Shown here: piece after piece, positions 5,481 to 51,884 of the stretch | Layout of the letters: the number at the start of each line of letters is the position of its first letter | Position numbering within the stretch: the stretch's first letter is position 1 | Assembly: GCA_951406725.2 (NCBI GenBank) | Contig: OX597839.1 | Span: forward strand, 22,630,001 to 22,694,000 | DNA length: 64,000 nucleotides | Direction: 5' to 3' | Source of the DNA: Octopus vulgaris | Taxonomy: Eukaryota | Position numbers and translations under genes: made by a program | Notes under the pieces: generated by a model | Databases searched by the model: none | Seen by the model: only the letters and a program-made list of their open reading frames with translations | Told to the model about the DNA's origin: nothing

Positions 5481-6342
5481 ATGGAGTAATTAACTGATAT
5501 AATTAAGAATTACTTCAGAATAATTATTTCCAACAAATGCATTAATTTACTACAATATCGCTGTAACAGGGTATTTATCAAACGATAATTACAATAGTTG
5601 AGTTAGAGTTAATATAATTAGTGTAATTAGCATTGAATACTTAATTAGAAATGTCTGTGTCAAGGAAGACAACATTTACTCAATGACTAATATTATTTTG
5701 ATAATTTCATGAATTATGGGAGATAACTTCAGGTATGTTTCAGACTTTTTGTACCTCCTCAGTCCTAATATTTACTAAAATGGAACATGTCTTCCAAAAT
5801 TATCAAAACAATATCTGTCTTTGAACTTAAAATGTCTATTTTCCCCATATAATTACATCTAATTAGTTACGAAACACTCATTACATTAAATATGTTAGCA
5901 CTAACTTAACTGTCGTTTTTCGTGTGAATGGTGTCTGGGTAATTAAATTCAGTGAGTTTTGTTTTGGTAAAATCTGCTATTTTCTCATGTGTCCTCATCT
6001 AAAACACTCTGTGTTTCCATGGTGACTCTCTCAGCCCTACATCACCATATAAGGTAAAGTCAAAGTCTCATCCTTTACCCCTAGAACTGTGAAAGACATT
6101 GTCAAGTACAAGGTGAAATGTCTCATACTGTTGGTTTGTTTGGCCCTTCACAGCATGGATTCAAAATCCTGCAGAGGTTGACTTTACTTTTCAGCCATCT
6201 GGGGCCCAAGAAAACAAGGACCAGCTCTATACTGCCAGTGGATTTGATCTTTTGTTTCCTTTCTTATCCAGGTTTTTAAATATTTTGTCAAAGTCAGAAA
6301 TCAATAGAAAATGATAGACACAAGAAAATTGACAAATACCAA

Positions 6343-22897: not shown

Positions 22898-23172
22898 GAA
22901 ACACACACACACACACACACACATAATCAAATTTCTTTGCCATCAGTAAAGATTAGGAAATAAATCTAGAGTTGTCCCCATGTTGCTTCAAAGTTTACAC
23001 TTATTCCCCATGTCTTTGTATTTTTAATTAATTCAAATCCTGGGGTTATCTCCCTTGCCTTTCTTAACAAGAATTATTTATTACCACTGATGTAATTTGG
23101 CTCAATTAAAAGAAAAAAAAGGTCTTGGCTCATTACATTTAGTGTAGATTTAACAAGGAAAGGCTGTCCCCG

Positions 23173-23886
23173 GTTACTATGGTAACAATAGTGGGGAAGT
23201 GAATGGGCAATAGCACTGGTTACGATGGTAACAACAGACCACTAAATACTGCCACTGGTTACTATAGTAACAACTGCTGAACTATTAGACTTTGTCAAGA
23301 GTTACTATGGCAACAATAACCGACGCTGATTCACAATTGCTCTGGTTACCATAGTAACAACAGTGCAACCACTAAATCACCCCCGCAATAGCACTGGTCA
23401 TGATGGTAACAACAGGCCACTAAATACTGCCACTGGTTACTATAGTAACAACTGCTGAACTATTAGACTTTGTCAAGAGTTACTATGGCAACAATAACCG
23501 ACTTCGATGCACAATTGCTCTGGTTACCATAGTAACGACAGTGCGACCACTAAATCACCCCCCCCCCCACCTGGTTACTATGGTGAAAGCAGCTGAGGAG
23601 GGTGGGGTAAGGGTGTATGGAAGTACCGAACACTATCAATGGTTACTATGGCAACACCAGTGGGGAAGCGAATGGGCAATAGCACTGCTGAACTATTAGA
23701 CTTTGTCAAGAGTTACTATGGCAACAATAACCGACGCCGATGCACAATTGCTCTGGTTACCATAGTAACAACAGTGCGACCACTAAATCACCCCCCACCT
23801 GGTTACTATGGTAAAAGCAGCTGTGGAGGGTGGGGTAAGGCGTGTATGGAAGTACCGAACACACTATCAATGGTTACTATGGCAAC
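23173..23886. repeat. Array of 15 palindromic GTTAC(T/C)AT(G/A)G(T/C)AAC motifs (RFX X-box-like) in higher-order duplications
   Basis: Motif starts 23173, 23219, 23258, 23301, 23345, 23397, 23436, 23479, 23523, 23574, 23642, 23712, 23756, 23802, 23873; 178-bp and ~232-bp higher-order units. Confidence 0.9.
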
Positions 23887-24679
23887 ACCAGTTAGACCGT
23901 TCCAAACAATAGCACAGTTGTTTTTAAGTAAGACCAGCCAACAGAAAAATCAATAAGCCACCACCACCACTCTCCACCACCCCACCCCAGCCTCCACCAC
24001 CCCACCCCACACCTCCCCTCTCCCCTCCCTTACAACATGTAACATGTTCAATAAACAATGATCAGTTTTACTGAGATTTTTTTTTTCCTGCTTTTTTTTT
24101 TTAATTTTTAAATTTTTTTTTGTGTTTTTAGTTCTTTTATTTTCTTTTAAAAGAAGCCATCAGCAGAGGAAAAAAGAGAGTGCAGCTCATTGATTCCACC
24201 CTCCGACCTCCACCCCCACTGTACTCTTGCCCTGCCCCCCCACCGCCACCAGGGATGGGTTTAGTACTTTAGTCACTTCCCCCCGCCCCGCCGTCCTATT
24301 TTTAATCTCTCCCCCGCCCCCGCCCGCTTCAATATACTCTTAACTAAAGGCATCAATGTCACAACCTCTCATTTCCTGTTCAAAAACACTATAAAGGCTT
24401 TAAGGAACAGGAAAGAAAAAGAAATAAATGAACAAAGACCATTATTTCTGTTGTTGTTGTTGCTGTTGCTGTTGGGATTCTATTGTCCAGAGGCATTTTT
24501 GTTGCTTGTTTTTTTGGTTACTGTTCTTTTGTTTTTTTGGTGTGCTTTTTTTTGACATACCACAGCAGATTGTTATAATCAATCTTCAGGGCCATTGTTT
24601 AAGTTCACATCACATAAACATTGGGCAGCGAGCGCGGGTGGGGGGGGGGTTCTTTTTTTTTTCAGCACTACCCCCATAT

Positions 24680-30875: not shown

Positions 30876-31804
30876 TTAACCTATTCTGTACTGTGGAAGT
30901 GTAGCCAATTTATTAAGTGGACCTCCTAAAGGGCTATTTGGACCCCAGTTGGAAATCATTACTTTAAAGGGTATTTGATGTGAGATAGTTTACTAGGAAT
31001 GAAAACCAGGCCATTAAAGTCTCTCAGAGCTCATATCCAAACTGCAATTTTCACCACTCTCAGCCTTCCGTCTTTCTCTCTTTCCGGCACCAGAGCTCAA
31101 GTACAAACAACCATTCTTGTAACAAATATCCTGCATTAAAAACTGAAACAATAGATACAGGCACCATGTCTTTCTCAGAAATGAACACCAATTGTTTTAG
31201 AGCTGTTACCAGTTCCAGGAATTATTCAATAACAATGAAATGGAATTTGCACAGATCTGAACTGGGACAGGCATCCATGTTGAGATATGATTCATCAAGT
31301 GATACAAAAAAACCAAAAAAAAAAACCCCAAAAAACCCCATTCCTTTATCCAGCAGTTCCTCTAATTATTAGAGTGTGATAATCTTAATTATGTTGGCTT
31401 ATTAGAAACAAAATAACAAAATGGTTTGTGGTGCCAAGAACAAAAGGTCAGAAGGAAAGGAAGAAAAAATGGTTGTGCATTTATTTTGCATATTTCATTG
31501 GTCAGAATTTTATTGGTTTCCATAGAAACCAATATTTATAACAGATTAAATAAATTCACACAGAAATACAAATAAAATGGAAAATTAATTTTAGGCCGTG
31601 TGAGTGTCTTAATATAGTTTTCTCATTGCAAATAACACAAGTAACGTTCGAAGACAATGTTATGCCGACGGCAATAGCAACCTCACAGCAACTTGACGCA
31701 AACTTGCAGGTGTGTGTGTGTGTGTGTGTGCTTGTATTTGGAGCATGCTGTTGTGAGTCATTCAGGCATGCATATATCTGTGTGTGTGTGTGTGGGGGGA
31801 TCTT

Positions 31805-36751: not shown

Positions 36752-36861
36752 ATGCTTACAGCACCTAGGTTTCCCAAGCGGTCACCCATCTAAGTACTCA
36801 TTAAAGCTCGACGTTACTTAACTTCAGTGATCAGACAAGAACTCATGCACTCAATGTGATA
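36752..36861 (-). pseudogene. 5S rRNA-derived sequence (first ~10 nt missing), fused to the SINE-A 3' tail (36693-36744)
   Basis: Minus: tgatcactgaagttaagtaacgtcgagc..agtacttagatgggtgaccgcttgggaaacctaggtgctgtaagc matches metazoan 5S, including box A and box C, with many substitutions. Confidence 0.88.
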
Positions 36862-37060
36862 GAAAATCCAGGTTTCACAATGGTAGCTTTATCTACTTCA
36901 AGTTTCCCCATTCCAGAAGAGAATTATTTCTGGCTCTCTTGAAGTTTCTAAATTCTTATGCTGTCAACAATACATACATATGTATACATACATACATACA
37001 TACACACACACATACATACATACATACACACATACATACATACATACATACATACATACA

Positions 37061-51492: not shown

Positions 51493-51569
51493 TTAAAAGG
51501 GTTGAATATTGTTGCAGTTCCAGAAGAATTGGGTTCTTCTCCAAGCTCTCCTCACTCTGAGTTTCTCAC

Positions 51570-51884
51570 CTGGTCTCACTCCCACATCTGCCCTATTCAC
51601 CAGATTTAGCACCTGTGGACTTCCATCTCCCCCCACCCCAAGAGGAAAATGCAACTCAGAGGTCACCGTTTTGGTATCATTGTCGAGATTCAGAGCAAAT
51701 AGTAGAAGATCCTTGACTTGATAATGGGAAACGACTTCCAGGCCAGACTCCAAAATGGCCGGAATGTTGGGACTGGTGTAGTGCTGAGCAAGGTGACTAT
51801 TTTTGAAGGAGATGAGGTTAAAACTCAGGCAAATAAGTTGTTTTTTATTAAACATAAACAAGTCTGGAAACCTTTTGATACCAC

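Follow-up and report, generated by a model that had tools for sequence, protein, structure and literature searches.

Why would a stretch of octopus DNA carry the same candidate transcription-factor site 15 times in 714 bp? Known targets of RFX factors, which regulate cilia genes, have one or a few X-boxes, and the 64,000-nucleotide stretch analyzed here (the window) holds a natural array of 15, with a duplication history that can still be read. As a single locus the array is of moderate weight, and it illustrates a route from minisatellite to homotypic cluster. What, then, is it; a regulatory element of the host, the remnant of a transposon, or a tandem repeat that owes nothing to selection? 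The answer that we prefer, with a probability of roughly 45%, is that this non-coding, tandem-duplicated array would serve host RFX dimers as a docking platform, with a predicted enhancer- or promoter-like action.

Between positions 23173 and 23886 (714 bp) lie 15 X-box-type 14-bp palindromes, spaced 39–71 bp from start to start, of which 11 match the consensus GTHNYYATRRNAAC exactly; our recount of boxes, spacing and exact matches reproduced that of the original prediction in full. The remaining 63 kb of the window has two further exact sites, at 6013–6026 and 31516–31529, both in largely unique sequence and with no gene identified nearby. When up to one mismatch is allowed, the window contains 51 strand-matches versus 17.3 ± 5.3 expected, a number reached in 0 of 100 shuffles, and the array contributes 28 of the 51. 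A profile search of the window with the six units described below recovered all 15 boxes and nothing else below E = 1.

The unit order of the whole array (23173..23886, no strand assigned to it or to its boxes) is A B C D E / B C D E F / A (B and C deleted) D E F / A. All three type A boxes are exact: box 1 (23173..23186), box 11 (23642..23655) and box 15 (23873..23886). The type B boxes depart from the consensus at position 6, which is the single non-consensus base of box 2 (23219..23232) and is accompanied by two more changes in box 6 (23397..23410). Type C comprises box 3 (23258..23271), which is exact and a perfect palindrome, and box 7 (23436..23449), also exact. Likewise exact are the type D boxes 4 (23301..23314), 8 (23479..23492) and 12 (23712..23725) and the type E boxes 5 (23345..23358), 9 (23523..23536) and 13 (23756..23769). 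Type F is represented by box 10 (23574..23587), in which two changes damage the right half-site, and box 14 (23802..23815), with a non-consensus last base. After the last box, at 23887..23935 of the forward strand, comes a tail that resembles a spacer; it includes the 3′ end common to the spacers and has no intact box behind it. The profile search detects no unit in this tail, which might conceivably be a decayed 16th unit.

Are these boxes truly RFX sites? When compared by eye with Table 1 of PMC3245922, nine of the 15 are letter-identical to validated Caenorhabditis elegans X-boxes, bearing out the X-box identity originally proposed; boxes 4, 8, 11, 12 and 15 equal the osm-5 site, and boxes 5, 9 and 13, as well as box 1 on the minus strand, equal the osm-6 site. 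In about one third of the boxes the right half is asymmetric and spoils the palindrome, and yet their sequence is that of a validated site, which favors a protein over a hairpin. If accessible, the array boxes could probably be bound by RFX under all three of the main readings weighed here, namely the docking platform, the transposon remnant and the neutral repeat. By comparison, it is very improbable that the array is a structural one, i.e. a set of hairpins or cruciforms, a structured RNA or a coding repeat. Although the single-stranded DNA folds better than its shuffles (z = −3.4 versus 20 shuffles), as is expected of repeated palindromes, the centroid structure is mostly unpaired, perfect palindromes make up only two of the 15 boxes, and an Rfam search of the window found no family at the array. 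That search returned only a 5S rRNA-like sequence elsewhere (36753–36868, minus strand, 47 bits), probably a pseudogene or the head of a 5S-derived repeat. Nor is there support for the coding version: the longest open reading frame (ORF) over the array, at 119 aa, matches no Pfam family, and a search of proteins 65–209 residues long gave no homologue.

How was the array assembled? Both of the duplications in the original prediction are real. On the forward strand, units B-C-D-E were recently duplicated in tandem as a 178-bp segment (23207..23562, 2.0 copies, 94% matches), and units D-E-F-A were recently duplicated across 23455..23892, with copies at 23455–23661 and 23688–23892 and an offset of about 230 bp (231–233 bp, ∼232 bp having been proposed). 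Compared copy with copy, the two duplications are about 95–97% identical. Boxes B and C appear to have been lost from the last block by a 58-bp deletion, the junction of which lies at 23676..23711 (forward strand) with a 4-bp microhomology; the spacing from A to D in this block is 70 instead of 128. The collapsed array consists of six unit types, with an ancestral-type block of about 290 bp. An earlier count of about seven different spacers is reduced accordingly to six unit types, two of the apparent spacers, those after box 5 and box 11, being junction chimeras of other spacers.

The spacers themselves turn out to be kin. Among the five non-chimeric spacers and the tail, all 15 pairs score above the shuffle mean and eight of the 15 do so at p ≤ 0.05, in a test that excluded six pairs with the tested chimeric spacer as well as the spacer after boxes 9 and 13. 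The non-chimeric spacers have a 3′ end in common and often a 5′ start too. Because the spacers are mutually related, the sites cannot be read as having arisen independently; they belong to an old higher-order minisatellite, with the head-to-tail related units and the block duplications typical of one. In other words, the array is, as judged from its sequence, a diverged old higher-order minisatellite that was recently re-duplicated. The contrast with a simple minisatellite that had been drawn for this locus holds in that the array is diverged and of higher order, but with related spacers it is a minisatellite all the same.

Given a minisatellite, were its boxes kept by selection or by chance? 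The boxes of the six old units have an identity of 0.857, versus 0.461 for the 22 flanking columns and 0.256 for unrelated background, a contrast that is inflated by box-anchored alignment and has to be seen against the many minisatellites of a genome. We read boxes about 86% identical between spacers about 46% identical as a sign of selection for binding. Neutral simulations, in which the conserved 14-bp window was not required to be an X-box, rarely produced anything similar: in tandem simulations without indels an equally conserved 14-mer arose in 0 of 4000 runs on a star tree and in 1 of 4000 on a random tree, and with indels the contrast was reproduced in 108 of 15,000 runs, the rate being at most 2% in most settings and 6.6% (33 of 500) in the worst, one with many indels. 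Six distinct transitions within boxes (positions 3, 5, 6, 9, 11 and 12) all fall where the consensus is degenerate on either strand, at roughly p = 0.035 in a hand count against the array consensus, about eight of whose 14 positions are degenerate. The two transversions that define unit types B and F (four of the 15 boxes) fall outside the tolerated positions. The recent duplicates differ to a similar extent in box and spacer, namely at 4/126 versus 14/296 positions (p = 0.33 by a Fisher test that has little power here and counts some of the changes twice). The claim that the motif was retained while the spacers diverged is thus upheld by the old units and not by the recent copies. Equal mutation of motif and spacer, which had been named in advance as the pattern that would speak against RFX function, shows the same division, with divergence uneven in the old units and even in the recent copies. 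Past constraint on the boxes is, from these comparisons, likely.

A neutral history would dispense with such constraint. An X-box that arose by chance or was bound in the germline would have seeded the minisatellite, and duplication bias together with spacer indels would have produced the present pattern. The related spacers and the inseparable recent rates are consistent with this account, and the window is a suitable setting for it, being rich in microsatellites and interspersed repeats (132 tandem-repeat rows; about 39% GC). Its repeat landscape has an octopus-like look, and a protein search intended as a test of that impression gave no hits. A duplication bias at germline-bound RFX sites is also known: according to the available part of PMC8559717, bound motifs in human spermatogonia are duplicated by short insertions, and its Table S4 gives 53 insertions for the RFX family versus 29 expected (ratio 1.83, corrected p = 0.017). 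We nonetheless consider a neutral origin quite unlikely, for the best-kept 14 bp are those of a motif that is rare and was defined independently, the box transitions counted by hand are confined to tolerated positions, and the simulations that reach 6.6% at their most permissive mostly stay at or below 2%.

Is the octopus array alone? We scanned other sequence collections for two near-perfect X-boxes 22–52 bp apart, a pattern that covers the X-box-type palindrome and no other. The yield was 11 loci in six prokaryote genomes, 118 metagenome loci, found in 21 of the collection's 64 parts (the estimate for all of it is about 370), and one viral locus. With this single locus in the viral-contig scan, a viral origin or a viral enhancer array was discarded as an explanation. 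By BLAST the window array is unlike any of 119 scan loci. Once one dispersed family is collapsed and two duplicates are merged, 53 independent metagenome loci remain, at least 10 boxes being present in 10 of them and five or more flank types (at up to three mismatches) in 15. These many-box, many-flank loci indicate that the architecture of the window array recurs; the box-versus-flank values of the 53 loci are circular, with boxes chosen by motif and units collapsed by flank, and serve only to count complex arrays. The closest architectural match (L004, 609–1151) has 14–15 varied X-boxes with varied spacers and adjoins a DEG/ENaC exon.

The composition of these arrays is informative as well. 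A TA-centered perfect palindrome occurs in two of the 53 loci versus the 11.4–13.3 that Markov models of the flanks predict (p from 3 × 10^−4 to 4 × 10^−5), and we read this rarity as a sign that the arrays derive from RFX-type sites rather than from palindromes in general; the same palindrome occurs in seven of the 11 prokaryote-genome loci. Box position 11 seems at first too rich in C (38 of 53 loci), but the excess vanishes upon strand correction, which raises the expectation to about 35. In the 24 simple, clean tandem X-box arrays among the 54 loci outside the dispersed family, boxes fare barely better than spacers: differences amount to 80 of 1724 box positions (4.6%) versus 142 of 2349 spacer positions (6.0%; p = 0.059), with 13 arrays in favor of the boxes versus 10. 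Pfam analysis of 89 of the 168 ORFs of the loci turned up domains of eukaryotic type or of retrotransposons in 15 loci; two loci have prokaryotic genes. The genes that adjoin X-box arrays are mixed, without a clear ciliary theme. Short arrays just behind ORFs with KH, Tudor, cofilin and G-beta assignments (L048, L014, L034 and L038) likely lie in 3′ UTRs. On the prokaryotic side, one Hadarchaeales genome has six paired-palindrome loci, mostly perfect (L120, L122–L124, L126 and L127), which are possibly the regulon of an archaeal regulator; a metagenome contig (L050) has a palindrome pair identical to that of L123 and adjoins SNO/SNZ and his genes.

Could a transposon have left the array behind? 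The dispersed family mentioned above accounts for 64 of the 118 metagenome loci (L008, L036, L058, L070 and 60 more) and is an element of 190–335 bp with the anatomy of a HINE/Helentron, with T-rich insertion sites and a 44-bp central tandem repeat that carries the X-box. Among its 59 scorable loci the 5′ subTIR is found in 42, the 3′ subTIR in 46 and the 3′ hairpin in 46; those with both ends (30 of 59) are 187–335 bp long and contain 2–4 boxes. In all 59 a further word stands beside the X-box. We take this word to be YY1-like and a word upstream to be CRE-like, and the family may carry promoter-type sites from place to place. Its anatomy agrees with the description of HINE / DINE-1 Helentrons in the available part of PMC4067079. 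Elsewhere among the loci, mirror-image arms of X-box units (L068, 1–1257; about 68–72% identity over 220–370 bp) have a foldback-like arrangement, and another X-box array (L020, 3001–3483) sits directly behind a 984-aa endonuclease/reverse-transcriptase ORF, i.e. in the 3′ region of a LINE.

With such carriers in existence, the window array might be an orphaned set of repeats left by a decayed DNA transposon, either a foldback/Academ-type arm or a HINE/Helentron centre, whose boxes would have been kept for host RFX or for a transposase during its activity and whose copy would now be drifting. This history predicts conservation in the past and a recent pattern indistinguishable from neutral, as is found. 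It is a possible origin, albeit a somewhat unlikely one, given what surrounds the array. No inverted repeats join its flanks (0 pairs at length/mismatch settings of 8/0, 11/1 and 14/2), no exact direct repeats of at least 8 bp span them, and the end motifs of the HINE-type family are absent; two hairpins with 6-bp stems are present in the right flank only. Within the 64-kb window there is neither a mirror-image partner arm nor a second copy of the array. Thus, neither the ensemble typical of HINEs and Helentrons (a pair of 11–15 bp subTIRs, a 3′ stem-loop and insertion at a T-run) nor that of foldback, Academ and MITE elements (a mirror arm, sought over the 64 kb, plus a target-site duplication, sought as direct repeats of at least 8 bp) was found, and the array also has no BLAST similarity to the 119 loci. 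The mobile element offered as an alternative in the original prediction is therefore unsupported at this locus. Separately, at about 51500–51850, the window contains what we presume from motif resemblance to be a decayed mariner-type transposase remnant, with no Pfam hit.

If the array is instead a docking platform, what would it do, and for which gene? We propose that the array began as a single X-box unit of some 45 bp, which ancient duplications expanded into a block of six, that the spacers would then have drifted while the boxes stayed through selection for RFX binding, and that the block would recently have been recopied by the 178-bp and about 230-bp duplications and shortened by a 58-bp deletion. 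A single RFX dimer could occupy each box, and the irregular intervals point to additive binding rather than a phased complex. The predicted output is enhancer- or promoter-like, in cells that are ciliated, neural or of the germline. Support for this docking array comes from synthetic RFX-motif repeats, which, per the available part of PMC4971761, had promoter and enhancer activity on their own in mouse neurons. Worm and yeast use multiple X-boxes to tune expression, and 30 of 31 validated worm X-boxes are no more than 300 bp from the ATG, as given in the accessible portion of PMC3245922. A conserved Rfx1/3 promoter is reported in the part of PMC10735318 at hand, and nothing ties it to the window.

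Several observations count against the docking array: boxes and spacers changed at similar rates recently, two boxes were deleted and four of 15 are damaged, the boxes of other simple arrays are barely better kept, and the genes next to other arrays are mixed. The surroundings count against it too. No exon was found, i.e. no Pfam family at the curated cut-off among 446 ORFs of the window, which comprise 430 mostly unmasked stop-to-stop ORFs of at least 35 aa and 16 chosen ones, a set that would miss a first exon if it were short or non-coding. There is no CpG island at the array (o/e 0.44 versus 0.39 for the window), and the boxes show no helical phasing. About 400 bp to the right, at 24270–24330, three words that we take to be GC-box-like lie in mostly unique sequence without a CpG island. 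In a listing of sequencing runs, 20 of 24 rows, under four organism labels, contain part of 23000–24050, with a best share of 0.62 and no RNA run on record; these shares carry no weight in the readings given here.

Homotypic clusters and multi-X-box promoters are already known, the latter from C. elegans F25B4.2, yeast RNR genes and human MAP1A (in the accessible portion of PMC3245922). Among titles and abstract openings, a coverage that mostly excludes subscription papers, we found no natural X-box tandem array or minisatellite. Similar arrays in 53 independent loci, together with the transposon-like elements, raise a broader question; why do animal repeats keep building RFX sites? One conjecture, doubtful but worth stating, is that X-box minisatellites could be an undescribed, animal-wide class of RFX-bound repeats, in which binding in germ and ciliated cells would both promote duplication and protect the sites, transposons would spread the arrays as HINE centres, foldback arms and LINE tails, and the arrays would serve as promoter-enhancers or as RFX sinks.

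How does the window array compare with known systems? With the RFX/DAF-19 X-box systems it has the 14-bp motif in common, to the point of nine boxes equal to osm-5 or osm-6 sites, but the C. elegans and MAP1A promoters have about two sites near a gene start (in the accessible part of PMC3245922), whereas the window has 15 tandem-repeat sites and no gene was found in it. Like the germline-duplicated homotypic clusters in the available part of PMC8559717, where RFX is among the insertion-enriched families, it is a cluster of one motif that grew by duplication; the human insertions are of 5–20 bp, whereas the window has units of about 40–70 bp, blocks of 178–230 bp and long spacer divergence. The central repeats of HINE / DINE-1 elements, as far as described in the accessible part of PMC4067079, are matched by the ∼44-bp tandem X-box repeats of the 64-locus family, and the arms of foldback transposons by the mirror arms of L068; unlike either type of element, the window array comes without the subTIRs, the T-rich insertion hallmarks, the mirror arm or a nearby second copy.

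A further parallel lies with alpha satellite, a higher-order repeat that carries the conserved, protein-binding CENP-B box. Although the window array is only 714 bp long, is single in the window and has a transcription-factor site as its word, it is like alpha satellite in its design: diverged monomers arranged in a higher-order repeat, each built around a short conserved word for protein recognition.
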